Below, piece after piece: positions 20,678 to 46,547 of a stretch of DNA of 64,000 nt; the first letter of the stretch is position 1, and the number at the start of each line of letters is the position of its first letter. The DNA is taken from NCBI GenBank assembly GCA_016125035.1, contig WGMN01000001.1, forward strand, positions 258,427 to 322,426. Reading direction: 5' to 3'. Position numbers and translations under genes: made by a program. Under the pieces are notes generated by a model. The model ran no database searches. It was not told the DNA's origin and worked only from the letters and a program-made list of their open reading frames with translations. The DNA is from Pseudomonadota bacterium (lineage in GTDB: Bacteria; Pseudomonadota; Alphaproteobacteria; UBA2136; UBA6156).

Positions 20678-23278
20678 TTACTTGGGGCGACGCGCCGAAC
20701 TGCGCGCCGCGCGCACACCGTGGGGATATTTCTCGGCGAAGGCGACGGTAGCCTTCCACCAGTCACCGTCCAATTCCTCTCGCAGGCGTTTGATTTCTGC
20801 CACATCGTCGGGGGTTGTGGTGGCCAGCGCGTAGGTGAGTTTGTCGGCGATGAGGCGGCACACCACCTCGCCGTGCGGTGACATGAAATAAAACTCGGAG
20901 AAAAAGCCCGGGCGCGTCATGAGGCTGGCGATGGATTGCTGGTGCCTCTCTGACCGCAGGCCGAGGGATTGCATGAGAATGGGGATCATCTCGCGGCGCG
21001 GTTTGAGAATGAGACGCTTGGTAATGTTGCCAATAATCGCCTGGCCGACATCGGTGGTGAGGTCTTCTTCGTTTTGCGAGGCGATACCGCACATGCAGTT
21101 AAGCGAGCGGTAAGTGCGGAAGGCGCGCTTGAGCTGGTTGGCCACCAGCGCACCGCCCTTGGCAGAGATCATGCTGACCATTTCATCCACCAGGAGGTGT
21201 TTCTTCTCGCCACGGTCACCCAAGTACATGACGTTATCTATCATGGTGAAAATGGCGTTGATGATGACGTCGGAGATTTTTTCGTTGAGCACGTTTTGCA
21301 GGTTAAAGACCACCATTTTGTCTTTTTCGGTGAAGCTGGGAGGGCCGTCGAACAGGCGGCCGTAGATGCCTTTCTCACAATACGAGCCGATTTCGCGCGC
21401 CATGGTCATGCCGGCCTCGCGCGAGGCTTCATCCGCATAGGGAAATTTGAGGTAGGCCTGCTGGATCCAGGTGGGGCGCAGCACGTCATCCGGCGGCACG
21501 ATATCGTAAGCATATTGCACCACCTGCTCGATGAGGCGTTGCTCGGTGCGGCTGATTTTGTAATCGCCCTTTTGGATCATCAGCTCCACCGAAGTTGTCC
21601 ATTGCTGGAGGCGGAGTTTTGAGATTTCTCCGGCAAAGGGGTTGATGCAGACGTCTTGCCGGTCTAGGTCGATGATGATCAGCTTGCCCATGGTTTCGGC
21701 GAAGCGGTCGTAGTCATCCTTGATGGTCATGAGATATTGTTTTTCAACGCCGGCGCTGAACATCTGCAAAGTAAGATCGACCACCGCGAACGACTTACCG
21801 GAGCCGGAGGTTCCGGTAATGGCGTAGTGCCAGTTCATGAAGTCTGGGCTGGTGTGGTCGAAGAAGGTGATTTCGCCGTCGCGGTTGACGTAGATGGCTT
21901 GGGGCGTGTTGTTCTCATACCTGGTGTGAGGACGGCCGTGGCCACCCCAGTGCCCGTGGACCGGAAGCAGGTCGACGATATCGTCGGAGAGCACGCGGCG
22001 GGTGCGGGCAAACGGGTTGGAAAAACGCGCGCGCCACGACAGCGGCCAGCTGTAGCTGAAGGCTTGCAGCGACATGGACTTTTCAATATCCGGCACCACC
22101 GAGCGTTTTTTGAACTCGGACGAGACGCGCATAAGCGAATCTTCCACCTCGGCCTTGGTTTTGCCGTGAATGATGACACCGACCATGGCAAAGACGATTT
22201 TACGGCCGCCGAACAGCCGTGTTTTTACCTCTGATGCCTCTTGCGCGTAGAGCTCGGCCTCCTCTTTATTAAAGGCCGAGGCCACGCGTTTGCGCATGGC
22301 CGCACCGAGGGTGAGTTTGACCTTCTCGAGCTGCTGGTTGGCGCTGGTGAGATTGCAGAAAAACGTCATCTGGCCGTTTAGGGTGCGGCGGATGCTGCCG
22401 AGGTAATCGGAAATGATGTTGTCTGGCATCATCGCCAGCATGACGGTGCCGTGGTAGTCGTCGCCGATTTTGACGATGTCGTACTCGTTCTCCAGCGGCA
22501 GGGGGAAGACCTGTTCGGCAAAGGGACGCAGAGGATCGATGCTGATGCGCTGAGTGGGGTCTTTGTAGGAAGGAGCGTAGGCTGTCCAGTAGTGCTCTTT
22601 TAAATCTTCCAGGGACATGCGGTGCATTTCGAACATGCCGTTGAGCGTGTTTTCCGCAGCCATGACGGCTTCGCGGAAATCCACCAGCGCGGTCTTGACC
22701 GTTTCTTCCACGAACCAGCCGGCCGCGCGCCCCATGTTGAGGCCCAGTACGGCGAACACCTGAGCCACGGCGATATAGGCGATTTCCAGCACTGCCTTCA
22801 TCAGGCCAAAGCGCTCGGTGTTTTCCATCGTGCGCAGGGTGATGACCATGTAGGTTTCGCGCAGGCGGGTAAAGCCGCGCTCGCTTACCGCATAGCCGCG
22901 GGCGCCGGAATCGCGGATTTTTTCCGCGCGGGACTGGCGCAACAGTTTGGCACGCTCGAGAGCCGGGGTGGCGTCTAGGTAAGATTGCAGCGGCTTGGTG
23001 AGGTTATTGTGTGAAGTGATGATGACCTGCGCTTCATAATCCTGCGGGATGCTCTCGAGGAATGTGCGCAGTTCGTTCACCGTATCGCCATAGCCGGAAT
23101 CCATGGAATAGCTGGGAGGAACCGGGCAACGCCAGCAAATGCCCAAGGCGCCGTCTTTGAGCAGGTGAACCCGATAGAGCGGGGATTTAGGGTCGTCATT
23201 AAACTCGAAATACGGCAATTGCTCGGCAAGTTGGTACGGCCGAGGCGGGGTGTATTTGTCGCGGTGGAAGAAACCCAT
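20678..23278 (-). CDS. VirB4/TraC-family T4SS ATPase
   Basis: 866 aa. A Walker A motif (GTSGSGKSF) sits in the C-terminal half. Walker B is LLVDEMVS, and there is a GIASQNEEDL motif. Size and layout match F-type TraC. Confidence 0.85.
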   Translation of the reverse strand: MGFFHRDKYTPPRPYQLAEQLPYFEFNDDPKSPLYRVHLLKDGALGICWRCPVPPSYSMDSGYGDTVNELRTFLESIPQDYEAQVIITSHNNLTKPLQSYLDATPALERAKLLRQSRAEKIRDSGARGYAVSERGFTRLRETYMVITLRTMENTERFGLMKAVLEIAYIAVAQVFAVLGLNMGRAAGWFVEETVKTALVDFREAVMAAENTLNGMFEMHRMSLEDLKEHYWTAYAPSYKDPTQRISIDPLRPFAEQVFPLPLENEYDIVKIGDDYHGTVMLAMMPDNIISDYLGSIRRTLNGQMTFFCNLTSANQQLEKVKLTLGAAMRKRVASAFNKEEAELYAQEASEVKTRLFGGRKIVFAMVGVIIHGKTKAEVEDSLMRVSSEFKKRSVVPDIEKSMSLQAFSYSWPLSWRARFSNPFARTRRVLSDDIVDLLPVHGHWGGHGRPHTRYENNTPQAIYVNRDGEITFFDHTSPDFMNWHYAITGTSGSGKSFAVVDLTLQMFSAGVEKQYLMTIKDDYDRFAETMGKLIIIDLDRQDVCINPFAGEISKLRLQQWTTSVELMIQKGDYKISRTEQRLIEQVVQYAYDIVPPDDVLRPTWIQQAYLKFPYADEASREAGMTMAREIGSYCEKGIYGRLFDGPPSFTEKDKMVVFNLQNVLNEKISDVIINAIFTMIDNVMYLGDRGEKKHLLVDEMVSMISAKGGALVANQLKRAFRTYRSLNCMCGIASQNEEDLTTDVGQAIIGNITKRLILKPRREMIPILMQSLGLRSERHQQSIASLMTRPGFFSEFYFMSPHGEVVCRLIADKLTYALATTTPDDVAEIKRLREELDGDWWKATVAFAEKYPHGVRAARSSARRPK

Positions 23279-23786: not shown

Positions 23787-25217
23787 CTATTGGGTTTGCT
23801 GCTGGCCCGTGGCCTGGGAAACATCGGCAGGGCTGCCGCTGGCGCGGGCCGCGTCTGCCGCCTGGGCATCAAACAGCAAGGACCAGGGGCTGCCCTCGGC
23901 GCGAAGCTCGGTGCCGTTGAGGATGACCAGATGAATTTGGCGAGTGGCATCCAACCGGATGAAAGGTTGAACGCGGTTGACGCGCTCCATCAGGTAGTCG
24001 CGCAGCGAAGACATGGCTTTGTTAACACCCCCGGCGACCTCTGCCTTAGCCTGGCTGCCGGTAATGGCGTTTTGCTGGGTGCCGTTGGAGTCTACCGTGG
24101 TGGTTTGCTGGTTTTGCGCAATAACCTCGCCGATGCCGGCGGCGAAGTCGGCAAGCATGGAGGCGGCGATGCGGGTGGGGTCGCCCTCGTAGAGCATGCC
24201 GGGGACACCGATGATGCCGTCGTCGGCGTCTACCACGTAACCGGAAAGGGAATAAGTGGCGGCACCACGGTCGGGATAGACGCATGTCATGCGCGCGGGT
24301 TTGCCCACGGCGCGCTCGGTGGAAATGTTGCCGTTGAATTCCACCATTACAAAACAGCCGTCGAGGCTGACGGTTGAACCCATGGCGGTTTTGTAGACAC
24401 CCTCCACCCGTGCCAGCGCGGGGGTTGGTGTGCCGCCCACCAGGGCATCCACCCCGTTAAGCAGAGTGGCTTTAACAAACCCGAGCGGCGGCATGAAAGG
24501 CAGCTTGGCGCCCGTGCCATCGGCCTTAAGTGCGTCGGTTGCGTCGCTAGCGCCCTGCGGGCGCCCCTGACCGAAAGGGGATAACAGCGCCGAACCGCCG
24601 CGCGGCCCCGCCGCCCCCCCTAATGTAACCTGGTTGATACGCTGGCGGCGCGGAGCCACCGGACCGTTGCCCACACCACCTTCCACCGGGGAGTTGAGCT
24701 CCATCTGGTGTTGTTGGTCGGCAAGTTGCGCCAAACGATCGGCATCCTTGGCGCGCTCGAGTTGCAGGTTTTTGATCTCGGCGGTGAAGTCGCTCATCAT
24801 TTGCGTCATCTGGCGCTGAAGCTCTTGGTTTTGCGACAGCGCGTCCTGCAGGGCGTGGTCACGCTGTTGGAAGCTATCTTCAATGCGGTTGCGCAGGTCG
24901 GACATTTCGCGCCGGTTCTGCTCGTAGACGTTTTGCATCACCGCCGGGCGGTCGGACTCCAGCCCGCTGAAGGGCTCGGTGCTGGAAGGCTGTGCCCCCA
25001 CAGTGCCCAAAGTGGGGCTGGCGGTGTTGGCAGCCTTATGGCTGGAACCGCTGAACATCCAGAACAACAACACCACGCCGCCGATGACGATGGCAATTTG
25101 CGCCTGCTTGGGCAGGCCGCGGAATTTGGCCAGCATGCCTTGCTGCGGCGCGGGCGCGCCTTCTTCCGCCCGCATGCCGGGGCGGGAGATGATATCGGGT
25201 TGGTTGGGCTCTGCCAT
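23787..25217 (-). CDS. TraB/VirB10-like bitopic protein
   Basis: 476 aa with one N-terminal TM, a Q-rich coiled coil and a C-terminal β-domain. Size and position match F TraB. Confidence 0.5.
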   Translation of the reverse strand: MAEPNQPDIISRPGMRAEEGAPAPQQGMLAKFRGLPKQAQIAIVIGGVVLLFWMFSGSSHKAANTASPTLGTVGAQPSSTEPFSGLESDRPAVMQNVYEQNRREMSDLRNRIEDSFQQRDHALQDALSQNQELQRQMTQMMSDFTAEIKNLQLERAKDADRLAQLADQQHQMELNSPVEGGVGNGPVAPRRQRINQVTLGGAAGPRGGSALLSPFGQGRPQGASDATDALKADGTGAKLPFMPPLGFVKATLLNGVDALVGGTPTPALARVEGVYKTAMGSTVSLDGCFVMVEFNGNISTERAVGKPARMTCVYPDRGAATYSLSGYVVDADDGIIGVPGMLYEGDPTRIAASMLADFAAGIGEVIAQNQQTTTVDSNGTQQNAITGSQAKAEVAGGVNKAMSSLRDYLMERVNRVQPFIRLDATRQIHLVILNGTELRAEGSPWSLLFDAQAADAARASGSPADVSQATGQQQTQ

Positions 25218-25223: not shown

Positions 25224-27317
25224 TTAAGGCCTAGGTTGAGGTTGGCTTGAAGCCAGTTTAGACGGCGCACGGCCTAAACGCAAACCACCCGCTTGCCCGG
25301 CAGGCACCCCATTTGAGGCAAGAGGAACCACCGTGACGCTTTTAGCACGCGCGAGCGTGACCAATGCGTGCTGTTCTGGTGTGATTTGGGCCAACAAACC
25401 TTCTGCGGTGGAGAGGTCTACTCCCTGGGCCCAGGCCTGCACCCAGATGGCTGGATATTTGACAAAAAGCCGGTAACGCAAACGGCGCCAGGCAAGGCCA
25501 GCCTCGCGGAAACGAAATAAAGCCGACGATAACGTAGGGCTGCGTTGTTGGAGGTTTTGCCGGTAAAGGCGGTTGGCAAACAACCTTTTGACGTTGATGA
25601 ACAACTGGCTGGCGTTGATTTCTGGCAGCCATGCAGGTGCCGCCATGGCGTTGGCCTGCAAGGCAACGTCCCCTTCCGCCCCAGAGGGGGCACCGCGTTG
25701 CACGGGCGCTTGAGAAGCAATGCGCAAAGCCTCGCGCAGGGGTTCTCCCACCACGACATGGTGGCGTGACAGTTGAGATTCCTCCATGGCTAATTTGGCA
25801 AGGGGAACAAGGCGGGATTGGAGGGCGGCCGGACAAGCCCCCACGCGGTTGTGTGGGTGGAGGTTGGGGAACACCGCCGGGTCGAGCTCGTACTCCAGCC
25901 CCGCGGGCAGAGGGTGGTAGCCCAAGGTGGCCACCGTTTGCCCCAGGGGCAAGCTATCGAGCGCTGAGCCGTAAAGGGGGTGGGTGTAATCTTTGGAGCG
26001 CTCCTGGCCGGTGCGCTCGTTGATTGTATCGTACCAGTTTTGTGCGATTGCCGGGTAAAAGCGCTGCTTCATGGCCTCGGGTAATGTGAAAACGAAGGGG
26101 TTATCTGCGACAGGGTGGCGCGCCGCGCGTACAAGCGACTGTGTTGATGCGTAAGTGTAGTGCACGGGATCCCATAATGGGCCGGAAATTTGGACGAAGT
26201 GGCCGCCGGCGTCCCAATCCCACAATGCAGGTTCTACAAAGTGGGCCGGGTGTGTGGGCAACCACACCGCCCCCCACACGGCCGCCACGCGAGGGTGAGG
26301 CAAAGAGAGGTTTGGCAGCATGGGCTGGGGCGCTTGAGCCGGGTTGTAAGCCGCCCCATTCGACACCACAACCTGAGCCGGAAAAACCTGCGCGGTTGTT
26401 ACATAGCCCGGCTGTACAACATCTAAAATGGTGCCGGCGGGTTCGGGAGAATCCTGCTGGTTGACCACCTGGTGCAGCCCTGAGACCGCGCGCCCTGCTT
26501 CCACACCAAGGATGCGGTAGTCTTCACCCACCTGGTAGATACCGTTGTAAGCCTCTAGCGTGGGGATGATGGTGACGCCTTGCAAAAACAGCTCTTCGTA
26601 CCAGGCAGCGCCGCCGTTACTTTCGTAGAATTCTTCATACGGTTGGTTCTTTGGGCGTTTATGCCAACGGGCGGTAAAAGATTGTGCTGATTTTTGCGCG
26701 AGCGTTGCGTCTACCTGTTTGGCGAACAAGCGTGTGGTTTGGGGAAGGCGCCAGCCATCTTGATAGAAAGTGTCTGGGCGCAGCTTATAAGGGGTTTGCA
26801 CGGGTTGGGGATAAACGGCGCGCAATTGCAGAGATTGCCCGGCCAGCTGCACGCCCGCAGCGGGTGCTATTTCCGCGCGGCGGTAGGTGGTGAAAATGGC
26901 GTTTTCAACCAGTTCGGCGCCCGGGGTGGCAATGGTGATATCCTCGCATCCTGCCGGGAATATGGGCGTTGCAGGCGGCGTGGGCAAAGGTAAAAGCCCG
27001 GTATGGATAACACGGCCCGCTAAATCTCTTACAAACACAGGGGCCAGCGGCCATTCGTCGAGCTGGGCAGGGTTGGCGGCATGCAGGTAGGTGGCGTCTT
27101 GCAGAATGTGATGGCCGTGTGCAGTGAGTGTAAGGGGGAGGTCGAGCTGGGCAAGCGACTGCCACTCTTCAAGACCAGGAAAAGGTTTTTGGTTGGCAAG
27201 CTCGGTGAGATGCCGGGCCAGGTGAGGATGGTCGCCACGGCGGAGATCCCAACAGCCGGCGAGAACGCGCAGCTGCTGCGCGTTTAAGGTTTCTGGCAAG
27301 TGGCGTAATGTGGCCAC
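25224..27317 (-). CDS. large hypothetical soluble/periplasmic protein (697 aa)
   Basis: ORF translationally adjacent to the TraB-like gene. No family was recognised. Confidence 0.5.
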   Translation of the reverse strand: MATLRHLPETLNAQQLRVLAGCWDLRRGDHPHLARHLTELANQKPFPGLEEWQSLAQLDLPLTLTAHGHHILQDATYLHAANPAQLDEWPLAPVFVRDLAGRVIHTGLLPLPTPPATPIFPAGCEDITIATPGAELVENAIFTTYRRAEIAPAAGVQLAGQSLQLRAVYPQPVQTPYKLRPDTFYQDGWRLPQTTRLFAKQVDATLAQKSAQSFTARWHKRPKNQPYEEFYESNGGAAWYEELFLQGVTIIPTLEAYNGIYQVGEDYRILGVEAGRAVSGLHQVVNQQDSPEPAGTILDVVQPGYVTTAQVFPAQVVVSNGAAYNPAQAPQPMLPNLSLPHPRVAAVWGAVWLPTHPAHFVEPALWDWDAGGHFVQISGPLWDPVHYTYASTQSLVRAARHPVADNPFVFTLPEAMKQRFYPAIAQNWYDTINERTGQERSKDYTHPLYGSALDSLPLGQTVATLGYHPLPAGLEYELDPAVFPNLHPHNRVGACPAALQSRLVPLAKLAMEESQLSRHHVVVGEPLREALRIASQAPVQRGAPSGAEGDVALQANAMAAPAWLPEINASQLFINVKRLFANRLYRQNLQQRSPTLSSALFRFREAGLAWRRLRYRLFVKYPAIWVQAWAQGVDLSTAEGLLAQITPEQHALVTLARAKSVTVVPLASNGVPAGQAGGLRLGRAPSKLASSQPQPRP

Positions 27318-27428: not shown

Positions 27429-29330
27429 TTAGCCCGGACCGCCGCCGGCGTTGGTATAAATGCAGCCGGATTTGGTGGAGTAGATTTTTTCCACGCGTTT
27501 GGCAAATTCTCCGCGGACCTTGGCAAGTTCATTGAGACGGGCAATTTGCTCGTCAACCGCCGGGATCATTACTTCCTTCACAACACGGGCGAGACGCTCG
27601 CGCAGTTCGGGGCTATCGATGAGGTCTGGGGTGGTGGCAGCACCATCCGCAGCAGTGGTGGCAGCAGGCTGTTTGATGCCTGCGCCTTTTTCGGTAAGCA
27701 GGCGGGCATAGACCTCTTTGAGTTTGAGGCTGAGGTAGCGATAGGTATCGCGCGTGGCGGTGAGAGCGACATCGTTGCTGCTTATATCGTAAAAAGCTGC
27801 GGTATCGGTGGCGTTACACTGGGTTTGCAGATCGGTTACGATATAGGGATCAAAGATGGGGATGGTTTGGTTAGCCGTGCAACCCAGCGCGACAAGAGCC
27901 AGGGAAGGCAGTGCGGCTTTGTCAGTAGCATAGGCCGCGGGTAGTTTAAGTTGAGCGTCAATAATGGTTTGTAGATCGCTCACACCTATATCGTTCAGAT
28001 TTACGGCAACGGATTGTGACGGCACGATTTGGTGATTACCGGTGTCATCTGCAGCTTGGGCGGGGTCTCGGCCGTTAATAATTTGCACGTAGGTCTGCAA
28101 GGCATACTTCATGTTGTTGGAGCTGCAGTTGAGGTAGTCCTTTTGGAATTCGGCAGTCAAAGGGTCTGAAATAGCTATATTAGAGGAATAGCTGAGACCA
28201 CGACTGAGAGTTAATTTTGTTTTGTCGGCGGCCAGAGACAAAGTCGCGGGGTCGATGTTGGCGGCTTTTATTTTTTGGAAGACCTGGTCTATCCAATCCG
28301 GGACAATTTTGTTGTTCATGATGAAGCGCATGAGATCGAAGAACACCGAGGTTTGCAGGGGGGCTTCCTTGACACCGTAATCGGTGCTGGGGGTGCAGCC
28401 GCCGCTAAGATCGGAGCCGTTGCAAAGGCGTACTTGCGGCACCAACAGCAGCGGCCAGCACGCTGTGGTTGAGTTGCTGGTATTGGTCGCGTCGGCAGAT
28501 GAGGTGTTTGTGGCTGCAGGGCATAGCAGGGGGCGGATGGATTCGTTCACGTTCTCTGTGCCACGGATGACATCGGCGAAGGCTTTACCGCTCTCTTTGC
28601 GTTTCTTCAAAGCAGCGTCATCGCTGGCGTATTGCATGGAGCAGACCTCCCACGCCTGGGCGTACGCCTGGGCTTTTACGATATCATCCTTGTTGGTGAC
28701 CTGCGGGGCGGACTGAATGGCATTGGTTGAGGTGTTTGTATTGTTGGCGGCGTTGGCTGTTTGCGCGGCATCATAAGCTTTGGTGACGATGTCCATGCGG
28801 ATGGGGACCTGCTCTTTGACGCAGGCGCTCATGTACTGGTTTTTGGCGTCCTGCTTGAGGGAATCGAGCTTACAGGCTTGCTGGAATTGTTGGTAACGGG
28901 CGTTGCCGTAAGAGTTTAGAGTATCGAACAGCGCGGCGGTTTGCGGCAGGCTGTAGTTGTAGGTGAGGATTTGTTTGGCCAGCTCCGAGTTAACGTCTTT
29001 TTTAAACTTATCGAAGACTTCCGGCATGTTAAACAGGGCGCTGGTGTAATCACCCTGGCCGATACCACCGCAGCCCTTGAGGGCATCCACGTCATCATCG
29101 GTAGTGGCGACGGGGGTGGTGGGGAAGGTGGTGTTTTGGGTGTTATCGGTGCCGAGGTTGAGCATTCCGGAGGGGCCGCCAAAGGCGCTTCCAGACTCGG
29201 AGAAGTAGTATTGGGGGGCGGTTGTGGTGGTGGACGCCGTGGGGCTTGGGTCATCGGCAAATGCGGGTACCGCAATGGCTGAAAACAGCCATAGGCCGAG
29301 CACGGCGAGGGCGGCGGGGCGGAAACTCAT
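27429..29330 (-). CDS. secreted Cys-containing protein with C-terminal coiled coil, TraH-like (tentative)
   Basis: Signal peptide (MSFRPAALAVLGLWLFSAIAVPAFA), an N/T-rich body and a C-terminal coiled coil. The region has markedly lower GC. Confidence 0.35.
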   Translation of the reverse strand: MSFRPAALAVLGLWLFSAIAVPAFADDPSPTASTTTTAPQYYFSESGSAFGGPSGMLNLGTDNTQNTTFPTTPVATTDDDVDALKGCGGIGQGDYTSALFNMPEVFDKFKKDVNSELAKQILTYNYSLPQTAALFDTLNSYGNARYQQFQQACKLDSLKQDAKNQYMSACVKEQVPIRMDIVTKAYDAAQTANAANNTNTSTNAIQSAPQVTNKDDIVKAQAYAQAWEVCSMQYASDDAALKKRKESGKAFADVIRGTENVNESIRPLLCPAATNTSSADATNTSNSTTACWPLLLVPQVRLCNGSDLSGGCTPSTDYGVKEAPLQTSVFFDLMRFIMNNKIVPDWIDQVFQKIKAANIDPATLSLAADKTKLTLSRGLSYSSNIAISDPLTAEFQKDYLNCSSNNMKYALQTYVQIINGRDPAQAADDTGNHQIVPSQSVAVNLNDIGVSDLQTIIDAQLKLPAAYATDKAALPSLALVALGCTANQTIPIFDPYIVTDLQTQCNATDTAAFYDISSNDVALTATRDTYRYLSLKLKEVYARLLTEKGAGIKQPAATTAADGAATTPDLIDSPELRERLARVVKEVMIPAVDEQIARLNELAKVRGEFAKRVEKIYSTKSGCIYTNAGGGPG

Positions 29331-29370
29331 ACCTTTAAGTTTGGGGCGGGAGGCTTTGTGTTGCAAGGGG

Positions 29371-31551
29371 TTAGCCGCCCTTTGCCGGGTGTTTGACCAG
29401 GGTGACGCGCAGGGCGTTTTGCGCGGTGGCGATTTTTTCAAAAATATGTTCGAGTTCAAGTGTTTGGCGGTGGGAAAGATTCATGCTGCGGGCTTGTTGC
29501 ACGGCTTTTTCCAGGTGGTGGGCCACCCTGGCCAGGCGCTCTTGTAAACCGTAGAAGGCCTTGATTTCCTTGAGATAACTGGCCACGGTGGCTTCGTCGG
29601 CCTGGGACATCAGGGCGTGGGCTTCCAGCTCGCGTTTGAGGCTTTCCACCGTGCTTCCAAGCTCTTGAATTTGCGCGGTTTGTTGAGCGATGGTGGCCTC
29701 GCGCTGCTTGCCCCAGGTCTCGGCGTCGCGCAGGGCGGTCTCCAGGGCCTCTTGACGTTTTTTCAAGGCGTTAGCCACCGCCGGGGCGAGGCTGTTCGCT
29801 GCCGATGGCGGCAATTCGCTGCGGCCGGGCGGCAAGGAAGCGGCAGAAAGCGGCAAAACGCTGCCGGAAGCGGCGGCGGGGGCGAGGTGCTTGATCTGCC
29901 CTGCTGCCGCAGCCTCGTAAAGTTCGGTGAACTGGGGGCCCCTGCCCCATGAGGCGCCGTGCTGGCGGATGAAATCGGCCATCTCCTCCTGCGCGCTCTG
30001 GGGCAGGTCGACCGCGGTGGAAGCGTTGGTGATCTGCACCAGGCCGTCCTCGAACAGTTGGCGCAGGCGCGGCGAGGCTTTTTCCCTGACCTTGGCGTAG
30101 ACGATGACGTTGGGGCGCGAGGTGCCCAGTGCCTCGGCTATTTTGCCCTGCGACAAGCCCAGCGTGAGCAGCGCGCCGATGGCGAAGTAGAGCTCTATTT
30201 TATCCAGCGGGCGGGTGCGGGCATTGAGGCAGATGCGCAGGGTTTGCGCGGCCTGCACCGACGGCGTGGCGCGCACCTGGCACAACAGCCTGTCCACCCC
30301 CTTGGCGCGGGCGGCGTGGATGCGGCGCTCGCCGTCGATCACCGCGCCTTCCGGCGTGATGAGCAGCGGCGGCCAGTGCTCGGCGTCGCCGTCGGTGAGT
30401 TTGCGGATGTGGGGCAGATTTTCCGGCGCGAGGTTGGAAGGAGGCCTGAACTCCAGCCCCAGCGAGGTAAGCACGGAGATGGGCCGCCATTCCACGCCTT
30501 GCAGGGCGAAGGTTTCGTCTTCCTCTGGCGTGAGGCTTGCCGGCAGGGCTTGGCCGGAATCGGCATCTTCCGCCGCCGCGGGTGGTTGCTGTTTGGCGGA
30601 GAGGGCCAGGCCATCGCGCAGCTCCGGGTACTCGGTGGCGAAGGCGGCGGCGATTTGCGCGGCGCGGCCCGGCACGGCATTGGACATGGCCTCTTCCAAG
30701 AGGCGTTGGGCGCGCTTCTCGTTCAGCCCCAGTTTGCGGAAATCGTAGACCACGCTTTTTAAGTCGGCATCCAGCAGGCGTTGGACGTAGAAGGCGTCCA
30801 TCAGCTCATTAAGGATCTGGCTGGCGCGGGAGTCGGTCACCCCGAAGTGGTAGGCGATCTCTTCAAAGCTGGCGACGCCGCCGACCTTGACGTGCATCAG
30901 CGCGGCGCGGCGCTTTTCGTCCCGTTCCGCGGCAATGAGGTCATTGAGTTTGCGCTCGATGAAGCTATCCTGGGCGATCTTCATCAGCAGGTTGGTTTGG
31001 CGCGAGCGCTGGGCGGAGGAGGCCTCGGAACGCAGATGCTCTTGCATGGTGCTTTCCTGGTCGAGGTGTTGCACCAGCAGCGGCGGGTTCTCGCGAAACT
31101 GGGCGCGGTCGGCGTCGGACATATCATTCATGTGCGCCTGGCGGGCCTGGTATTCGGGGTCGCGGTTGCGCATCTCCAGCGCCTTGCCTTCCAACCGGCT
31201 GCCGAAGAAAGTGTTGAACTGCACGGTGACCACCTCGCCGCCGGCCTTGGTGTAGACCGGGTTGAAATCGCGCAGGCAGGTGAGCAGCACTTCGTAGGCC
31301 TCTTGCAGCAGGTCATCGCCATCTAAGTGATAATGCCGCGCCAGGCTGAACGCCGCCTGGCGGCGGCCATGGATATACTTGACCGCGGATTGGCGCGCCA
31401 GTTGGTAACCTGCGTCTTCTGTTTTAAGGGCCTCGGCACGCACGGAGGTGGGGCTGCTTTGCCGCGCCTTGGCCGCCCCTTTGGCGGCGGCGGCTTTTTT
31501 GGGCGATGCGGCGGCGGCCTTTTTGGCCGCGGGCTTAGTGGTTTTGGGCAT
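29371..31551 (-). CDS. fusion protein: Lys/Ala-rich tail + ECF-sigma-like regions 2 and 4 + ParB-like N-domain/HTH + C-terminal coiled coil
   Basis: The N-terminal tail MPKTTKPAAKKAAAASPKKAAAAKGAAKA is histone-H1-like. DLLQEAYEVLLTCLRDFNP is sigma region 2-like, and SFEEIAYHFGVTDSRASQILNEL is region 4-like. VIDGERRIHAARAKG is ParB box-like, and GKIAEALGTSRPNVI is an HTH. Confidence 0.6.
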   Translation of the reverse strand: MPKTTKPAAKKAAAASPKKAAAAKGAAKARQSSPTSVRAEALKTEDAGYQLARQSAVKYIHGRRQAAFSLARHYHLDGDDLLQEAYEVLLTCLRDFNPVYTKAGGEVVTVQFNTFFGSRLEGKALEMRNRDPEYQARQAHMNDMSDADRAQFRENPPLLVQHLDQESTMQEHLRSEASSAQRSRQTNLLMKIAQDSFIERKLNDLIAAERDEKRRAALMHVKVGGVASFEEIAYHFGVTDSRASQILNELMDAFYVQRLLDADLKSVVYDFRKLGLNEKRAQRLLEEAMSNAVPGRAAQIAAAFATEYPELRDGLALSAKQQPPAAAEDADSGQALPASLTPEEDETFALQGVEWRPISVLTSLGLEFRPPSNLAPENLPHIRKLTDGDAEHWPPLLITPEGAVIDGERRIHAARAKGVDRLLCQVRATPSVQAAQTLRICLNARTRPLDKIELYFAIGALLTLGLSQGKIAEALGTSRPNVIVYAKVREKASPRLRQLFEDGLVQITNASTAVDLPQSAQEEMADFIRQHGASWGRGPQFTELYEAAAAGQIKHLAPAAASGSVLPLSAASLPPGRSELPPSAANSLAPAVANALKKRQEALETALRDAETWGKQREATIAQQTAQIQELGSTVESLKRELEAHALMSQADEATVASYLKEIKAFYGLQERLARVAHHLEKAVQQARSMNLSHRQTLELEHIFEKIATAQNALRVTLVKHPAKGG

Positions 31552-31730: not shown

Positions 31731-32177
31731 TTACCAGCGCCGCCAGTAAAGGTAGGTTTGCGGCGGTTCGTATTCGTAATAGACCGGCGGCGGGCGGTAG
31801 ACCACCACCGGCGCCACCGCGACCGGATAGGGGACCGGCACGTAGACAGTGGCCGGCGGTACCACAGGTGGCGGGGGCACGACCGGGGCGGGCTGAGGCA
31901 CCGGCATGACCGAGGTGCTGTCCTGCACCGTTTTGGTGGTAGTGCTTGTGGTGGAGCCCACCGGGGCAGCAGGCGCCGGCGTGGTGACCGTGGTGCTGCT
32001 CTCGGTATGGCTGATGACCACGTTGCCGCCGAGGAAGCAGCCCTTGGTGGCGAGCTCGGCCAGTTTGGCCGGCGTGAGGACGGTTGGCCAATCGCACACC
32101 GGCTGGGCGGCGGAAGCAATGGACAGGCTGGCGACGAGGCAGGCGGCGGGAAGCGTGCCGCGGAGAAGTGGGCGCAT
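31731..32177 (-). CDS. small secreted Pro/Val-rich protein
   Basis: Signal peptide followed by a PxxP-rich low-complexity region. Confidence 0.4.
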   Translation of the reverse strand: MRPLLRGTLPAACLVASLSIASAAQPVCDWPTVLTPAKLAELATKGCFLGGNVVISHTESSTTVTTPAPAAPVGSTTSTTTKTVQDSTSVMPVPQPAPVVPPPPVVPPATVYVPVPYPVAVAPVVVYRPPPVYYEYEPPQTYLYWRRW

Positions 32178-32294: not shown

Positions 32295-34064
32295 TTAGGC
32301 CGCGCCTTTTTTGGCCTGGTTTTTGAGGGTTTGCTGGAGCTCGCCCAGGAAAGGACTGGGTTGCGGCGTGTGCCAGGTGAGCAGCAGGTTGGCGCGGGTG
32401 CGGCTGATGGCCAGGTAGAACATGCGGCGCTCGTGGTCGGGGTTAGGGCCCAGCAGGGTTTGCGGCGGCCACGGCCAGGAGGCGGCGCCGGCGTGGGGCA
32501 AGATGACGGTGGTGAACTCCATATTACGCACCTCGCGCACCGGGGCGACGGTGATGGGGGACTCCATATTCGGCAGGGTTTCCTGCATGACGCGGGGCAG
32601 CACCTCGGTGAGTTTGCCCGACAGGCTGAGCAGGGTATCGGTGGCCAGCAACGCCTCCGGGTGCTCGGCCGCCGGGAGGGTGGTGAGGAGCTCGGCCACC
32701 AGGGACTTGAAGACGTCTCGCGGCGGCATGGCCTTGGCCTGCAACAGCTGCCCGGCACCGGCAAAAGCACGGCGCACCCGCTGCACCGCGGTTTGCAGCG
32801 GCGGGGTGAGCCCTTCCAACGGCGGCAGCGGGCAACCGGCCGCCAGCCAGCCCTCGGCCCTAAGGCCCTGGCTGAACAGCCCCGTTACCACCCCCGCCGG
32901 CAGGCCGAAACCGATGAGCACCAGCTGCAAATGCGCGGGCGTGGCCTGGCCGAGCATGACGTAGAGCATGGCCAGCACCAGCTGGGCGGTGGGATTCTCC
33001 CATATAAGCCGGGCGTAGCTGGCCGGGTTCATGCCTGCCTTGCGCAGCACCTGGGTGATGAGCGAAGCGGTAAAATCATCCCGCGTGAGGATGCCGATGG
33101 CCAAGCGCGAGCCCTTGGCCTGCGCCAGCAGTTGCGAGCAGGTGCTGGCAAGGAAGGCGTGCTCGGCCACCGCGGAGGGGAAGGCCTCGGCGCGGAGGTC
33201 TCCCGGGTTGGGGTTGGCGGTGCCGTCGCCCTTGGTGGCGCGGTGCTTGAGCTGGCGGGCGATTTTGTTAATGGCGGGGGCCAGGGTTTTGGGCAGGCGG
33301 AAGCTGACCTCCAGATTAAAGCGTGTGATGTCTGGCCAGGCTTCCACCGCCTCGATGGCTTGCAGGCCCATGGCGCCGTCTTGCACGAAGGCGGTGATGT
33401 CGTCATCTGCCGCCATGGTGAGGGCCACCCCGCTGCCCATGTGCATTTGCAGCCAGATGAGCTGGAGCTCGGTGGCGTCTTGCAGGTTATCCAGCAGAAT
33501 GTGCGACACCGGCAGCGGCGGGACCTTGCCCTCCCGCATGCCCAGCACGTGGCGGCGGATGATGTCGTGCCTATCGAGCAGGCCGAGTTCTTCCAGCTTG
33601 TGCTGGTAGGCGCTGACGAAGGCGTAGTGGCGGTCGGTCTCTGGCAGCTTTTTGGCGTGGCTTTTGGCCGCGCGGATGATGTGCTCGGCCTCGGACAGTG
33701 TGCCGGGGAACGCTTGCTGGGCCACCAGTGTGCGCAGGATCTCCCTCACCTGGTTGTTGCTGACGAAGGAGAAGGGCTCGCCCGCTGCTTGCAGTTGCGC
33801 GGCGGCGAGGTCTCGCAGCGTGCCGGCGCGCAGGCCGCCGGTGGCGATGTGTGCGTTGAATTGCGGGTAGTGACCGTGGGCGTAGCTTTTGATGTACTCC
33901 AGGCTGCGGAAGGCGAAGGTGCACAGCGCCGCCTTTTGGCCGGAAGTGATGAGGCGGTGGGCTTTTTCCAGCAGCAGCAGCGTTTTGCCCGAGCCGGGTG
34001 GGCCGACCACCAGGGCGCTCTCATGGTGTTTGAGGACTGCTTGCTGGCTGCGCGACCACTCCAC
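32295..34064 (-). CDS. UvrD/Rep-like superfamily I helicase domain protein
   Basis: Walker A VVGPPGSGKT and the UvrD_C-like motif FYLAISRTRANLLLTW. Motif II reads DNLQD rather than DEFQD. Confidence 0.65.
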   Translation of the reverse strand: MEWSRSQQAVLKHHESALVVGPPGSGKTLLLLEKAHRLITSGQKAALCTFAFRSLEYIKSYAHGHYPQFNAHIATGGLRAGTLRDLAAAQLQAAGEPFSFVSNNQVREILRTLVAQQAFPGTLSEAEHIIRAAKSHAKKLPETDRHYAFVSAYQHKLEELGLLDRHDIIRRHVLGMREGKVPPLPVSHILLDNLQDATELQLIWLQMHMGSGVALTMAADDDITAFVQDGAMGLQAIEAVEAWPDITRFNLEVSFRLPKTLAPAINKIARQLKHRATKGDGTANPNPGDLRAEAFPSAVAEHAFLASTCSQLLAQAKGSRLAIGILTRDDFTASLITQVLRKAGMNPASYARLIWENPTAQLVLAMLYVMLGQATPAHLQLVLIGFGLPAGVVTGLFSQGLRAEGWLAAGCPLPPLEGLTPPLQTAVQRVRRAFAGAGQLLQAKAMPPRDVFKSLVAELLTTLPAAEHPEALLATDTLLSLSGKLTEVLPRVMQETLPNMESPITVAPVREVRNMEFTTVILPHAGAASWPWPPQTLLGPNPDHERRMFYLAISRTRANLLLTWHTPQPSPFLGELQQTLKNQAKKGAA

Positions 34065-34073: not shown

Positions 34074-34862
34074 TTACGCGCTGGGGTTGACGCGGTGGAT
34101 GCGCAGGTACATGGCGTAGACGTTGCGGATGTAACGGTTGGCATAGTAAGCCGTGCCGCTGTGGTAGCGGCCCACCAGGCCCCACCAGTCGCGGCCGGAG
34201 TCGCGGTTCTCGAGCAGGTATTGCACGGCGTAGGCCAGGTTGGAATCAACATTAAAGGCCTGGTGCAAGGTGGCGAAGTGGCTGCCGTGCACGCGCCAGT
34301 TAATTTGCATCATGCCGATATCGAGGTTGGTGTAGCCGCTGGAGAGGAAGCGTTGGGCAAAATTCTCGGCCTCCTGCGTGTTATTGAAGCGGCGCGAGAA
34401 CGGCCGCGGTTGCAGCACCACCGGGGAGAGATCGGACAGCGCAGAGAGCTGGGCCGATGTTTCCGCCGCGCTGGCGTTGGAGCGGGCGATGCCCGGGGCG
34501 CGGAAGTCGAACCTTACGAAGCCCATGGCGCGCCACTGGTTAAGGGCGGAGAGCGCGGCGGCGCGGCCGGAAAGTGTGCGCGAGGACGGTGCGTTGACGC
34601 CCACGGTGTAGGGCCACGGCAACACCCAGCCGCGGATGCCCTGCCCGGTTTCCACCAGGCTGATGGCGTGGAGCAGGCCGGGCGGGATGTTGTGGGTGTG
34701 CTCGGCCTCGCTGATGAGCAGCCAGGCGTTGCGCGCGACCACCGGGTCGAAGGGGTCGGAGGCGTACTCGGCCTGTGCGTGGATGCTGCCGATGGCGGCG
34801 AAAAGCGGCAGCAGGAGGAAGAGGAACTTCACGGTTATTTTATGGGGGGCGGCGTTAGGCAT
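34074..34862 (-). CDS. specialised lytic transglycosylase (SLT domain, VirB1/IagB-like)
   Basis: Signal peptide, then an SLT catalytic region (LLHAISLVETG…QINW). Confidence 0.7.
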   Translation of the reverse strand: MPNAAPHKITVKFLFLLLPLFAAIGSIHAQAEYASDPFDPVVARNAWLLISEAEHTHNIPPGLLHAISLVETGQGIRGWVLPWPYTVGVNAPSSRTLSGRAAALSALNQWRAMGFVRFDFRAPGIARSNASAAETSAQLSALSDLSPVVLQPRPFSRRFNNTQEAENFAQRFLSSGYTNLDIGMMQINWRVHGSHFATLHQAFNVDSNLAYAVQYLLENRDSGRDWWGLVGRYHSGTAYYANRYIRNVYAMYLRIHRVNPSA

Positions 34863-34873
34863 TGCTGGCAACC

Positions 34874-35602
34874 CTACCGCAAGAATACCAGGAACAGCAC
34901 GCCTTTGTCGCCGGGCTGGCCAGCCGGGGCAAGGCGCAGGTTTTCCATGGAAGCAAAGCGCAGCACGCCCCACTCATCGGTTTTGGGAATGGTGATGGCC
35001 GGGAGGTTGACCTCGTTAGGTTTGGCGTACTCATTACGCACGTGCACCACCAGGCCGGTAAGCTGGGGAGATTGCCAGACCTCGGCGAGATCGAACATCA
35101 TGCCGTTGCCGCGGAACCAGTTGGGGATGACGTAGGTCTCGCGGTTCACTCCAGGGATGTCTTCATCCTGGGCCATGGAGCGGATGAGATCATGCGGGCC
35201 GAAGTTTTTGGAAATGTTACGCTTGACCTGGTCGAGCTCCAGCCCGTTGACGACTTGCAGGAACGAGCGGTAGGGCACGTCGGTGGTGAGCACCACGATG
35301 TAGGTGTTGCCCGATTGGCCGGTGAGGAACATGCGTGTGGCCATTTTGGGCAGCAGCGAGCGCATGCGGAAGGCGCGGTTGTTGTAGCCATCGACCACCA
35401 GGATATCGACGTAGCTGGGGTCTTCCAGCGTGACGTTGGTGATGGGTTCGGGGAATTCCACATGAGAGACGTCGTCTTGCGTCAGCCCGATGGTGAGGGT
35501 TTTGGTGGGCCCCTGCCACACCAGAGTATCGGCATGCAGCGCGGCAAAGGGCAGCGCCAGCAGGGCGAGGATGAGCAGGAGGGGGCGCAAGGCGTTCTTC
35601 AT
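34874..35602 (-). CDS. TraK/VirB9-like secreted protein
   Basis: 242 aa, the same length as F TraK, with a signal peptide and a β-rich body. It sits between the TraE-like gene and the lytic transglycosylase. Confidence 0.4.
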   Translation of the reverse strand: MKNALRPLLLILALLALPFAALHADTLVWQGPTKTLTIGLTQDDVSHVEFPEPITNVTLEDPSYVDILVVDGYNNRAFRMRSLLPKMATRMFLTGQSGNTYIVVLTTDVPYRSFLQVVNGLELDQVKRNISKNFGPHDLIRSMAQDEDIPGVNRETYVIPNWFRGNGMMFDLAEVWQSPQLTGLVVHVRNEYAKPNEVNLPAITIPKTDEWGVLRFASMENLRLAPAGQPGDKGVLFLVFLR

Positions 35603-35696: not shown

Positions 35697-36359
35697 TTAC
35701 TGGGCCGGCGGCGCGGCGGCCGGAGCGGGAGCGCCGCCGGGAGTGGTGAGCGGTGTTTCCTTATAAGAACTGAGTTTGAGGCCGTAGGGGTTGGCCGGGC
35801 TGACTTGCGTTTTCTCGAACTTCATGGCGATTTGCAGGGGCACGTTTTCCGCCACCGTGCCGGCGATGATGGTGTTGAGCTGGCCGATGATGGTGACCTC
35901 GCGTATGTCTACGCCGTTCTCGCTGTATTTTTTGACTTGCAGGGAGGATTCGTCTGGCACGAAGAGCGATGAGCGGCGGTCGGCGGTGGAATCGCGGATC
36001 TTACGCTCGAAGTAGGGCACGGAGTCGGTGAGCAGGGCGGGGGAAAAGAAGCTTCTGATCGCGCTGTATTGTTTGGCCATGGTCTCGGGCGTGAAGGAGT
36101 TGATGGACTGGGTGATGTAGCTGGTGAACATCATCGTCAGGCGGTCGTCTTCCGTGGGGCTGTAGAGCCCGGTGGCGGCGCCGGGCACCACGATGACCGG
36201 CAGGCTCATGCGGCGTTGCATCAGCTGCGCGTTGAGCGAGGCGTTGCGGCTTAGCTGGCAGGTGGTGACCAGGCCCAGCACGATGACGCAGATGAGCAGC
36301 ACACCGGCGATGCGGTGGGCACGGTCAATGACAGCTCCGGCGCGGGCGACGAAATCCAT
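35697..36359 (-). CDS. TraE/VirB8-like bitopic protein
   Basis: An N-terminal TM followed by a periplasmic domain of about 170 aa. The position follows the TraL-like gene. Confidence 0.35.
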   Translation of the reverse strand: MDFVARAGAVIDRAHRIAGVLLICVIVLGLVTTCQLSRNASLNAQLMQRRMSLPVIVVPGAATGLYSPTEDDRLTMMFTSYITQSINSFTPETMAKQYSAIRSFFSPALLTDSVPYFERKIRDSTADRRSSLFVPDESSLQVKKYSENGVDIREVTIIGQLNTIIAGTVAENVPLQIAMKFEKTQVSPANPYGLKLSSYKETPLTTPGGAPAPAAAPPAQ

Positions 36360-36469: not shown

Positions 36470-36736
36470 CTACATTTCCAGCTTTTTACAAAACCGCGGA
36501 GATGGGCGCATGCGGCCCAGCTGGATGTAGCGGTACATGACCCGCATGGCCAGCCCTTCCGGCTTATCCATGGTGAGTTTGTACATGAAGTAGGCCGCCA
36601 TGGCGCCCAGCAGGATGGACGGCAGCGCCTTGCCGCTGACAAACATGCAGGCGTAGTAGGTGGTGAGGTAAGTCATGACGTATTCAGGCGTGCGGTTGGG
36701 CCTGTCGATATTACGGGGCACGGAGCGCATTTGCAT
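36470..36736 (-). CDS. TraL/VirB3-like small membrane protein
   Basis: About 70-88 aa with one hydrophobic helix and basic flanks. It sits directly after the pilin genes, as traL does in the F plasmid. Confidence 0.3.
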   Translation of the reverse strand: MQMRSVPRNIDRPNRTPEYVMTYLTTYYACMFVSGKALPSILLGAMAAYFMYKLTMDKPEGLAMRVMYRYIQLGRMRPSPRFCKKLEM

Positions 36737-40934: not shown

Positions 40935-42014
40935 CTAGCCGCAGGTGGGGTTTACCGCCGCGGTATCATCATTAACCGTGGTGATGCGCGCCGGCAGCTT
41001 GTTGGAGCCCGCGCCGGGGCGGGCACCGCAACCGCCGCCGGAGTTACGCGGGCGCGGGTTGCTGAAGTAGTAGAACGCCTTGGGTTCGTCATCGGTGCCC
41101 AGTTGCAGTGCCGAGCAGCAGAAGTCATCCGGCAGGCCGAGCAGGTGCATGAGGCCTTGCATGGCGCTGCGGCGGGTGGCGTCATTCTGGCTGTTATCCA
41201 CGTAAATGGTGGCGTTGTAGTAGGTGGCGGAGTCGGCCTGGGCGGCCACCGCCAGCGACTTGGGATAGTAGACGACCAGCTCGGGCGCGCCGTTATCGCA
41301 GGTGGCATCGCCGGTGAGGCCGGTGGCAGGGTCTTTCGGCAGGGCGTTGCAGGTAGCGATTTTGTTGGCGTAGGCGTTTTTGGAGTAAGACTCCAGCGAT
41401 TGGGCGACGCGGTCGAGGCGTTGCAGCGTGAGGTTGTAGCGGTCGAGCTTTTCCGGGTAGTCGGTGAAGCGGGTCATGATGTCGTCATCGGACGGTTGGA
41501 GTGCGCTGAAGGTTGAGACCTCTCTGCCCGAGAGGTGGGACCACCAGGTGACGTCGTCGGCCGCCGCGAGGGCCGTGCCCTGCACCGCGATGCCGGGACC
41601 GGCGGTGGTTTGCCCGTTGGGGCCCGAGGAAATGAGTGTGGCGTAGTAGATCTCCACCGGGCTGCCTTGCAGGTTGCGCGAAGGGTCTTTGTACATGATG
41701 TAGGAGCGCGGGCGGCCCCAGACGTCGTTCTCCATCTGGCTGGTGGAGAGGTTGGTGTAGCCGCCGAGATCGGTGAACCAGGTATCTTCAGCCGGCAGGA
41801 CGTTTTTATCGGCCAGGTAGGCTTGCAGGGCCTTGCGGATCTCTAGCTGGGTGTTCTCCTCGCTTTGGATGTCGCGCTGGCGGATGAACTGGAAAATGGC
41901 AGGTGTGCTGATGCTGACCAGCACCGCCAGCACCGCGATGACGATGACCATCTCTGCCAGAGTGAAGCCGCGGCGGCAGGAGGCAAGGGTAGAAGACAGC
42001 ATGGGCGTTTTCAT
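40935..42014 (-). CDS. large prepilin-type pilin/pseudopilin (359 aa)
   Basis: Class III signal RRG|FTLAEMVIVIAVLAVL with Glu at +5. Confidence 0.7.
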   Translation of the reverse strand: MKTPMLSSTLASCRRGFTLAEMVIVIAVLAVLVSISTPAIFQFIRQRDIQSEENTQLEIRKALQAYLADKNVLPAEDTWFTDLGGYTNLSTSQMENDVWGRPRSYIMYKDPSRNLQGSPVEIYYATLISSGPNGQTTAGPGIAVQGTALAAADDVTWWSHLSGREVSTFSALQPSDDDIMTRFTDYPEKLDRYNLTLQRLDRVAQSLESYSKNAYANKIATCNALPKDPATGLTGDATCDNGAPELVVYYPKSLAVAAQADSATYYNATIYVDNSQNDATRRSAMQGLMHLLGLPDDFCCSALQLGTDDEPKAFYYFSNPRPRNSGGGCGARPGAGSNKLPARITTVNDDTAAVNPTCG

Positions 42015-42947: not shown

Positions 42948-43009
42948 GGGTGGAACCTCCTTTCTGGCCAGTTGCTTATACCGGCCTGCACCAGCGCCGA
43001 CTTACAGGG

Positions 43010-43594
43010 TTACTCCACCCCCGGAATACTGAGCCGGTGCAAACCGTAAATGCTTTTGAATTCCACGATTTTAGGGTGGATGGCGATGATGGTGAGATCG
43101 AGCGTGGGGTTGGCTTCCAGGCGCTTGTTAAGCTTGTTTTCCAGCAGGTTGGCGGCGTCGCTGTCGTACTTGCGCAGTTCATCGAGGGCGGCGTCGGCGT
43201 TCTGGGTGCGGGCAAGGGCCACGCGCACCTGGCTGCCGACCCCCATCCACTGGTTATATATCAATACTTTAGGGCCCGCCGCGCCATCTACCCGGCCGCC
43301 CATTTGCAGGCCCTGCAACTGCGGCTGGAAGGCGCTTTTGCTGTTGAGGATCTGCTCGGCCTGGTGCAGCGCCTGCAGGCGGGCGATGCGCAGGGCCTCG
43401 GCCTCGACGTCGAGGGTGGAGGAGACCTCCTCCACCTTAGCCTTAACTTGCGGGAACGGGCTGGGCTGGCCGCTGTAGGTGGGAACGACAGTGGCCGAGG
43501 TGGAGTTGGCCGCCTTCCACAAAATGATGCTTTGGCCCCACGCCAAGGGCGAGAGCAAAACCAGCGCGGCGACGAGGGCGAGGTGTTTGATCAT
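43010..43594 (-). CDS. periplasmic protein (GspC/PilP-like by position)
   Basis: Signal peptide MIKHLALVAALVLLSPLAWG. The assignment is by position only. Confidence 0.4.
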   Translation of the reverse strand: MIKHLALVAALVLLSPLAWGQSIILWKAANSTSATVVPTYSGQPSPFPQVKAKVEEVSSTLDVEAEALRIARLQALHQAEQILNSKSAFQPQLQGLQMGGRVDGAAGPKVLIYNQWMGVGSQVRVALARTQNADAALDELRKYDSDAANLLENKLNKRLEANPTLDLTIIAIHPKIVEFKSIYGLHRLSIPGVE

Positions 43595-45398: not shown

Positions 45399-45400
45399 GG

Positions 45401-46486: not shown

Positions 46487-46547
46487 GGAGGCCCAGTTTC
46501 ACTCTTTTTTTGTTTGGCACGGCCGGCCGTATGGCCTGCTGCTTGGC

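Follow-up and report, generated by a model that had tools for sequence, protein, structure and literature searches.

A predicted UvrD-fold protein without the motif II glutamate, encoded in a chromosomal F/SXT-type secretion cluster of an alphaproteobacterial genome

We analysed a window of 64,000 nucleotides (the whole stretch of DNA considered here; positions 258,427 to 322,426 of contig WGMN01000001.1, assembly GCA_016125035.1) of an alphaproteobacterial genome, and mainly focused on a helicase-like gene located within a cluster of type IV secretion system (T4SS) genes (32295-34064; Table 1). The protein sequence indicates, in agreement with a structural model, that the product of this gene is a full-length superfamily 1A (SF1A) protein of the UvrD/Rep/PcrA fold, in which asparagine occupies the position of the catalytic glutamate of motif II. 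Judging by the homologous sequences, the loss of this glutamate is a trait of the whole family and not an error, and the protein appears to be catalytically degenerate but not decaying. We hold with moderate confidence that it may act in the ATP-bound state, without translocating or while cycling only very slowly, as a nucleotide-gated clamp or adaptor of an F/SXT-type T4SS and not as an unwinding motor.

The protein (P0001) is 100% identical to an "AAA family ATPase" deposited at NCBI under the name Proteobacteria bacterium and encoded on a 461-kb contig of a metagenome-assembled genome (MAG). In Pfam it matches the UvrD-helicase domain (PF00580; 6.4e-10, 39.6 bits vs. the curated cut-off of 23) and the UvrD_C domain (PF13361; 9.4e-9, 35.6 bits vs. 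the curated cut-off of 25.6), and the latter match bears out the UvrD C-terminal signature recognized in an earlier note, which had been made from the DNA letters alone. The NCBIfam matches to UvrD, PcrA, Rep and helicase IV were all sub-threshold, and a family profile composed of 23 members matched UvrD with an E value of 4.9e-32. The AlphaFold2 (AF2) model, calculated from the family alignment (pLDDT 90.2, pTM 0.87), has its best PDB matches among UvrD-DNA-nucleotide complexes, Rep, PcrA and UvrD1 (Foldseek E 7e-27 to 1e-22, TM 0.60-0.65), with the complex of UvrD, DNA and ADP.MgF3 (2is6; E 7e-27, TM 0.65) at the top. About 650 columns of this model align with UvrD, Rep and PcrA, and all four subdomains (1A, 1B, 2A and 2B) are present. 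The protein shares only ~18% amino acid sequence identity with UvrD and Rep of E. coli and PcrA of Geobacillus, but motifs Q, I, Ia, IV and VI align with theirs. The chain ends soon after motif VI, without the C-terminal Tudor-like domain through which UvrD and PcrA bind RNA polymerase.

Some features of a competent SF1A enzyme are retained and others are lost. The Walker A motif reads VVGPPGSGKT, as given in the earlier note, and conforms to the GxxxxGK[ST] pattern (GPPGSGKT); the arginines of motifs IV and VI are also present. Motif II (Walker B) lacks the glutamate of DExx. In HMMER/phmmer comparisons with PDB sequences, ILLDNLQDATELQLIWL was paired with ILVDEFQDTNNIQYAWI of E. coli UvrD at maximal posterior probability, and the family profile gave the same register, in which ILLDNLQD corresponds column for column to ILVDEFQD of UvrD and Asn193 occupies the column of the catalytic glutamate (E221 in UvrD, E224 in PcrA). 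Both alignments agree with the earlier, tentative reading of DNLQD at the position that usually reads DExQD. Apart from the glutamate, the motif II signature of UvrD, Rep and PcrA (DxxQD...Q..W) is kept, and in the AF2 model a beta-strand (residues 188-191) directly precedes D192-N193, as expected for the Walker B strand. The AAC codon of Asn193 is two substitutions away from both GAA and GAG. Since the DE dipeptide is absent from the entire 589-aa protein, there is no intact DExx motif elsewhere in the chain, a possibility that the earlier note had raised against its own reading. The second altered site is motif III, which departs from the GDxxQ...W-R pattern both at the glutamine, responsible for gamma-phosphate sensing and coupling, and at the Trp-Arg pair, which contacts single-stranded DNA (ssDNA). 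Motif V is rewritten.

The same pattern was found throughout the family. A word-indexed search revealed 51 full-length homologues (35-72% identity), all originating from metagenomes or MAGs, and an exhaustive HMMER search of 1.84 billion cluster representatives with the family profile brought the total to ~80 sequences scoring at least 228 bits. Among the 51 closest members, position 193 is occupied by Asn (35), Gly (12), His (2), Ser (1) or Thr (1) and never by Glu, which is equally absent from this position in the wider family (P0001-P0082 of the motif table) and in all 76 members of the monophyletic clade described below. The preceding aspartate (D192) is kept in 49 of the 51, with Glu in the remaining two. 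The motif III glutamine is replaced by Val, Leu, Thr or Ile in 45 of these sequences, the Trp-Arg of YGWRGA by a variable residue followed by Asp (also in 45), and motif V has the form VAPVREVRNxEF instead of the TLHSxKGLEF type. The nucleotide-binding residues are far more constant: the Walker A residues G21, G24, G26, K27 and T28 and the arginine R555 of motif VI are invariant (51/51), R256 of motif IV is present in 49, and the Q-motif glutamine (Q7) and an aromatic residue or His ahead of the motif IV arginine are each found in 48. Deviations from GK[ST] occur in only two of ~73 family members. The C-terminal tail is rich in Lys and Arg in most of them.

The family is clearly separated from its nearest relatives. 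In the exhaustive search, a drop in score from 411 to 215 bits divides it from a family of canonical helicases of ~570-600 aa, every listed member of which has LLVDEFQD, GDDDQSIYGWR, LMTLHSSKGLEF and EERRLFYVGMTRA (HSSKGLEF and VGMTRA types). In a neighbour-joining tree (100 bootstraps) rooted with a UvrD/PcrA-like sequence, the degenerate clade was monophyletic in 100 of the 100 replicates, and the canonical group in only 7. The stem of the degenerate clade is long (0.90), its members lie farther from the root than the canonical ones (2.95 vs. 1.84), and mean identity amounts to 37% within the clade as compared with 21% between the degenerate and canonical groups. The loss of a catalytic residue and the accelerated evolution might be taken as signs of a functionless, decaying remnant. 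This we consider hardly credible, as the open reading frames (ORFs) are full length in all members across 35-72% identity, 47 columns are invariant (the whole P-loop included), and the gene keeps one fixed place in the operon, with its start 9 nt from the stop codon of the preceding lytic transglycosylase (SLT) gene. The protein is full length and kept in ~80 sequence clusters with an intact P-loop, and therefore does not seem to be decaying.

According to the reading that we favor, the protein would be a "locked" helicase, which holds ATP, hydrolyses it very slowly or not at all, and does not translocate. The residues responsible for hydrolysis and coupling (motif II Glu and motif III Gln) and the ssDNA-gripping Trp-Arg of motif III are gone. 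The whole set expected to bind Mg-ATP is kept: the glutamine of motif Q, the P-loop, the aspartate of Walker B, both arginines (motifs IV and VI), and the aromatic residue just before the first of them. It is the conserved nucleotide pocket, combined with the loss of Glu and Gln and the lack of constraint on position 193, that points to ATP binding without translocation. An experimental parallel is provided by the Walker B mutants UvrD-E221Q and PcrA-E224Q, which bind ATP and DNA, neither hydrolyse nor translocate, and are trapped in the ATP-bound state (PMC8318588). The same position is neutralized in both cases, but these are toxic laboratory mutants, whereas the state described here is natural, clade-wide and accompanied by remodelling of motifs III and V. 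Inside the T4SS, the locked protein might clamp DNA or a partner protein, or act on either of them as an adaptor. As the Trp-Arg pair is lost, its ligand may be another nucleic-acid structure or a protein, and the candidate partners are a sigma-70/ParB fusion encoded nearby and a soluble type IV coupling protein (T4CP) of the same cluster.

Several observations weigh against this reading. The loss of the ssDNA-contacting Trp-Arg makes DNA binding itself uncertain. In a few divergent members the P-loop is damaged (GTGRT, GTGKL) or the motif IV arginine is missing, so that ATP binding may be non-essential in some lineages. The cluster contains neither a relaxase nor an origin of transfer (oriT; see below), and DNA transfer by this T4SS is therefore only putative. 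Finally, motif V holds a nearly invariant, family-specific glutamate (E511) that might serve as a catalytic substitute.

The last point leads to the main alternative, in which the protein is still an active ATPase and helicase and a relocated residue (E511, or E127) activates the water molecule. E511 is the obvious candidate, being present in 73 of 75 members, with Ser or Ala at the aligned position of the canonical relatives, and the strong conservation of the P-loop, the Mg-binding Asp and both arginine fingers is what would be expected if hydrolysis mattered. The ASCE superfamily offers a parallel, since the catalytic Glu of RecA lies outside Walker B. However, we know of no described SF1A helicase with a relocated catalytic base; position 193 is free to vary (N, G, H, S, T), the gamma-phosphate-sensing Gln of motif III has been lost along with the ssDNA-binding Trp-Arg, and the long stem and faster evolution of the clade fit a changed function. 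We regard this alternative as possible but rather unlikely. If it were true, it would represent a novel active-site arrangement among SF1 helicases. The clamp or adaptor reading, if correct, would mean that proteins of the helicase fold need not act as motors to be of use in type IV secretion, and would offer a tractable way to approach an uncharacterised T4SS family that occurs widely among MAGs from freshwater, marine and activated-sludge samples and from sample series S2. Either way, a scaffold has been retained over deep divergence in a T4SS operon, with the hydrolysis residues lost and the nucleotide pocket kept.

The nearest relatives with canonical motifs, which make up the next-best family of the exhaustive search (from P0083 on, with 170-215 bits against the family profile), are encoded in modules for DNA processing that belong to conjugative elements of the MOBH type. 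In one such locus (L024) the canonical helicase gene is followed by those of a TraI_2 relaxase, a coupling protein and a DtrJ-like protein, and in two others (L025 and L026) it comes after the genes of ParA, ParB, MobI and a bPH protein. The helicase of plasmid pSTJ2, with intact DE and GDDDQS, adjoins AcaB, TraN and the MobH relaxase, and in a Shewanella plasmid the helicase gene comes after traN. The backbone of IncC plasmids contains a "uvrD" gene between kfrA and traF (PMC8169936). The canonical group is paraphyletic, and the degenerate clade arises inside it or at its side. The location of the canonical relatives beside genes of MOBH relaxases, TraD and MobI links the ancestry of the family to conjugative DNA processing. 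The protein would thus descend from stand-alone helicases that accompany MOBH relaxases, TraD and MobI; it looks like a member of this lineage relocated into the mating pair formation (Mpf) operon of an SXT-TraD-type T4SS. The earlier note had offered two options, a component that processes DNA for transfer and a degenerate helicase, and both appear to be partly true. The ancestry near MOBH relaxase, TraD and MobI accords with the first part and the lost motif II Glu and motif III Gln with the second, as long as degenerate is not taken to mean decaying.

The MOBH/MPF-F helicases (IncC uvrD, pSTJ2 and L024-L026) and the family described here share a length of ~570-600 aa, the four-subdomain SF1A architecture, ~21% identity and an association with SXT-type TraD sets. 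They differ in that the former keep DE, GDDDQSIYGWR, HSSKGLEF and VGMTRA, whereas the latter has lost Glu, Gln and Trp-Arg and has a rewritten motif V; moreover, the former are found in DNA transfer and replication (Dtr) modules by the relaxase gene, and the latter in an Mpf operon, between the SLT and sigma-70/ParB genes, with no relaxase gene nearby. The adjacency typical of Dtr helicases was not observed, as no homologue of TraI_2, MobI or DtrJ is encoded in the window. MOBH relaxases contain no helicase domain, yet UvrD-like genes travel with them; a separate helicase partner is plausible, and the degenerate clade constitutes a natural experiment in this respect. Plasmid-borne relatives were ruled out as members of the family, since all matches in PLSDB are of the canonical type and share less than 27% identity.

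Helicase folds without motor function have been recognized before, and RecC and AddB are further examples. Within conjugation systems, a precedent is given by the vestigial helicase domain of the F/R1 TraI protein, which binds ssDNA and has no motor function (PMC5422253). This domain is of the SF1B type (RecD2-like), is fused to a relaxase and has lost both Walker A and Walker B, while the protein described here belongs to SF1A, is free-standing and has a complete nucleotide pocket. The intact ATP pocket, the free-standing state and the location in a T4SS operon distinguish it from the known non-motor helicase folds. The UvrD-like fold is also shared with GajB of the Gabija system, to which weak, partial PADLOC matches were obtained (best 3.8e-15); membership in this group was rejected, as there is no adjacent GajA/OLD nuclease gene, the context is that of a T4SS, and the resemblance is of a kind common to UvrD-like domains in general.

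Table 1. Predicted features of the helicase-like gene and of the surrounding secretion cluster (positions in the 64,000-nt window).
Feature	Position	Strand	Remarks
UvrD/Rep/PcrA-fold (SF1A) helicase-like protein	32295..34064	-	589 aa, GTG start
Motif I / Walker A, VVGPPGSGKT	33981..34010	-	residues 19-28
Motif II / Walker B, ILLDNLQD	33477..33500	-	residues 189-196
Asn193 at the catalytic Glu position	33486..33488	-	codon AAC
Motif III, ADDDITAFVQDGA	33372..33410	-	residues 219-231; Gln of GDDDQS replaced by Ile, Trp-Arg of YGWRGA by Gln-Asp
Motif IV arginine, R256	33297..33299	-	kept; equals UvrD R284 (gamma-phosphate contact)
Motif V, rewritten, VAPVREVRNMEF	32514..32549	-	LMTLHSSKGLEF in canonical relatives; holds E511
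Motif VI, HERRMFYLAISRT	32397..32435	-	arginine finger R555
SLT-type lytic transglycosylase	34074..34973	-	Pfam SLT 4.7e-5; adjoins the helicase-like gene in 15 loci
TraK-like secreted protein	34874..35602	-	by position only; no Pfam match; signal-peptide-like N-terminus
TraE-like T4SS protein	35697..36359	-	Pfam TraE 6e-4, TIGR02761 2e-4
TraL-like T4SS protein	36470..36736	-	Pfam TraL 4.5e-4
Soluble T4CP, SXT-TraD-like	56671..58131	-	Pfam TraG-D_C 2.7e-10, TIGR03743 SXT_TraD 7.8e-25
Sigma-70-family / ParB-N-domain / helix-turn-helix / coiled-coil fusion	29371..31551	-	726 aa
Cys-rich envelope protein	27429..29459	-	676 aa; TraN-like by composition only
Conserved 691/697-aa protein	25224..27317	-	no fold assigned; GrpE-like subdomain; not a relaxase
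TraB/TrbI (VirB10-like)	23787..25217	-	Pfam TrbI 1.8e-13
TraC (VirB4-like ATPase)	20678..23278	-	Pfam P-loop_TraG 3e-11, TraC_F_IV 1.9e-7

The helicase-like gene forms part of a co-directional block that spans ~44 kb of the window (between about 17 and 61 kb) and contains, in the order of transcription: (i) genes of a TraF/thioredoxin-like protein, the soluble coupling protein and a type IVb pilus; (ii) genes of TraL, TraE, the TraK-like protein, SLT and the helicase-like protein, followed by a small non-conserved ORF; and (iii) genes of the sigma-70/ParB fusion, the Cys-rich 676-aa protein, the 691/697-aa protein, TraB/TrbI, a small Cys-rich protein and TraC/VirB4. What the earlier note had called a secretion operon is accordingly an F/SXT-like T4SS and type IVb pilus cluster, situated on a chromosome between housekeeping genes: those of RNase PH, Ham1 and HemN on one side, and of glycosyltransferases, endonuclease III (Nth) and DnaJ/DnaK on the other. 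No tRNA gene was found other than one at 1559-1635, 15 kb outside the cluster, and no integrase gene was found in the window. Given the housekeeping flanks and the lack of an integrase and of an adjacent tRNA gene, the cluster (17000-61200) does not resemble a recently integrated element. With no relaxase gene either, an integrative conjugative element was rejected for the window.

The gene order TraL/TraE, SLT, helicase-like protein, sigma-70/ParB fusion, Cys-rich protein, TraB/TraC is kept in 16 related MAG loci, as far as each of them extends, and the helicase-like proteins of these loci share 35-63% identity. The loci include chromosomal MAG contigs of 0.27, 0.63, 1.02 and 1.26 Mb. On marine contigs with more divergent members, the genes flanking the helicase-like gene agree in size and order, and in locus L028 the gene is placed between the TraE/TraK-like genes and that of a 713-aa protein, with no SLT gene called. 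Apart from this missing SLT gene, all family members that were inspected and have flanking sequence share the arrangement. The TraK-like orthologues (66-76% identical) are found between TraE and SLT in the related loci, and the 691/697-aa protein also occurs outside T4SS clusters. The carrier MAGs are labelled Alphaproteobacteria or Proteobacteria; the labels Pseudomonas fluorescens, Blastochloris viridis and Pseudomonadaceae look unreliable. No family member bears the name Micavibrio, and the Micavibrio genome paper contains no description of such a system.

The absence of a visible relaxase, mentioned in the earlier note, was confirmed for the window. No relaxase family of Pfam or NCBIfam was matched by any of the ~45 ORFs scanned; MOBH TraI_2, MobI and DtrJ-like queries taken from related loci and compared with all ORFs of the window by phmmer matched only the T4CP; and when the 697-aa and 726-aa families were aligned with TraI_2 in hhalign, the probability was below 1%. 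On the basis of these four approaches, a hidden relaxase was rejected for the window. The search for oriT-like repeats, proposed in the same note, had a negative outcome: a scan of the 17-62 kb region for inverted repeats revealed only weak or intragenic repeats and one terminator, and a promoter and terminator scan stayed at background level, with nothing resembling an oriT. The terminator is a perfect 16-bp inverted repeat (53976-54011) with flanking A and T runs (CGCAAAAAAGCCCGCC/GGCGGGCTTTTTTGCG), and is an ordinary bidirectional intrinsic terminator placed after a plus-strand gene (52586-53968).

The coupling protein of the cluster is encoded ~22 kb from the helicase-like gene and contains no transmembrane (TM) segment. 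Its gene is flanked by two small ORFs (56380-56667 and 58150-58476; 56380-58476 in total, minus strand), each encoding a protein with two TM helices, and together the three may constitute a split T4CP. The type IVb pilus genes (40935-51349, minus strand), located inside the T4SS block, encode an N-methyl pilin-like protein, T2SSF, T2SSE and a secretin, and a prepilin peptidase gene is additionally present in related loci.

The 726-aa protein, whose gene is the next conserved one downstream of the helicase-like gene in 16 of the 16 loci with sequence there (47-68% identity), combines a sigma-70-family region (TIGR02937, 8e-9, residues 69-251), a ParB N-terminal domain with a GERR box (profile match to Spo0J, 1.3e-7) and a long C-terminal coiled coil. 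To our knowledge, no fusion of sigma and ParB domains has been described. The constant adjacency and the better conservation of this protein would suit a transcription-linked role, in which the helicase-like protein would work with the fusion on RNA polymerase or on the promoter DNA of the T4SS genes; PcrA and UvrD bind RNA polymerase (PMC8318588), and HelD does so likewise. However, the protein lacks both the C-terminal Tudor-like domain mentioned above and the N-terminal insertion of HelD, and adjacency by itself is no proof of interaction. A role of this kind seems quite improbable.

The location of the gene in a relaxase-less chromosomal T4SS cluster, as well as the Lys/Arg-rich C-terminal tail of most members, might also suggest a translocated substrate, i.e., a natural dominant-negative Walker B mimic that would block SF1A helicases of the recipient or prey. 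In its favor, PcrA-E224Q is dominant negative and toxic (PMC8318588), and the UvrD protein of the recipient is reported to act in the conversion of single-stranded to double-stranded DNA after conjugation (PMC10085688). The loss of the DNA-contacting Trp-Arg disfavors the tight DNA trapping that such a mimic would need, and we consider this alternative highly improbable. A broader scenario would comprise a hitherto undescribed, chromosomally fixed, relaxase-less F/SXT-type T4SS with a type IVb pilus in uncultured Alphaproteobacteria, in which the "Walker-B-locked" UvrD-like protein and the sigma-70/ParB fusion replace the relaxosome, and the locked helicase either passes DNA to the coupling protein without unwinding or is injected as a dominant-negative mimic. 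As a whole, this scenario is decidedly unlikely.

Other observations concern genes of the flanks and of the cluster. An ORF antisense to dnaK (7054-8967, plus strand), located at 6931-9027 of the minus strand, matches the Pfam family NAD-GH (PF10712; 5e-177), which we take to be an artefact of PF10712 matching the reverse strands of hsp70 genes and not a real gene. The Cys-rich 676-aa protein, for which no family or PDB match was obtained, has a single TM segment at its N-terminus, and of its 13 cysteines 8 are invariant across 14 orthologues. The region between the helicase-like and sigma-70/ParB genes is variable in content: in the window it carries an ORF of 148 aa (31731-32177, minus strand) with a signal-peptide-like N-terminus and no counterpart in the 16 related loci, and in locus L003 the gap is filled by the gene of an IS200-type Y1 transposase.

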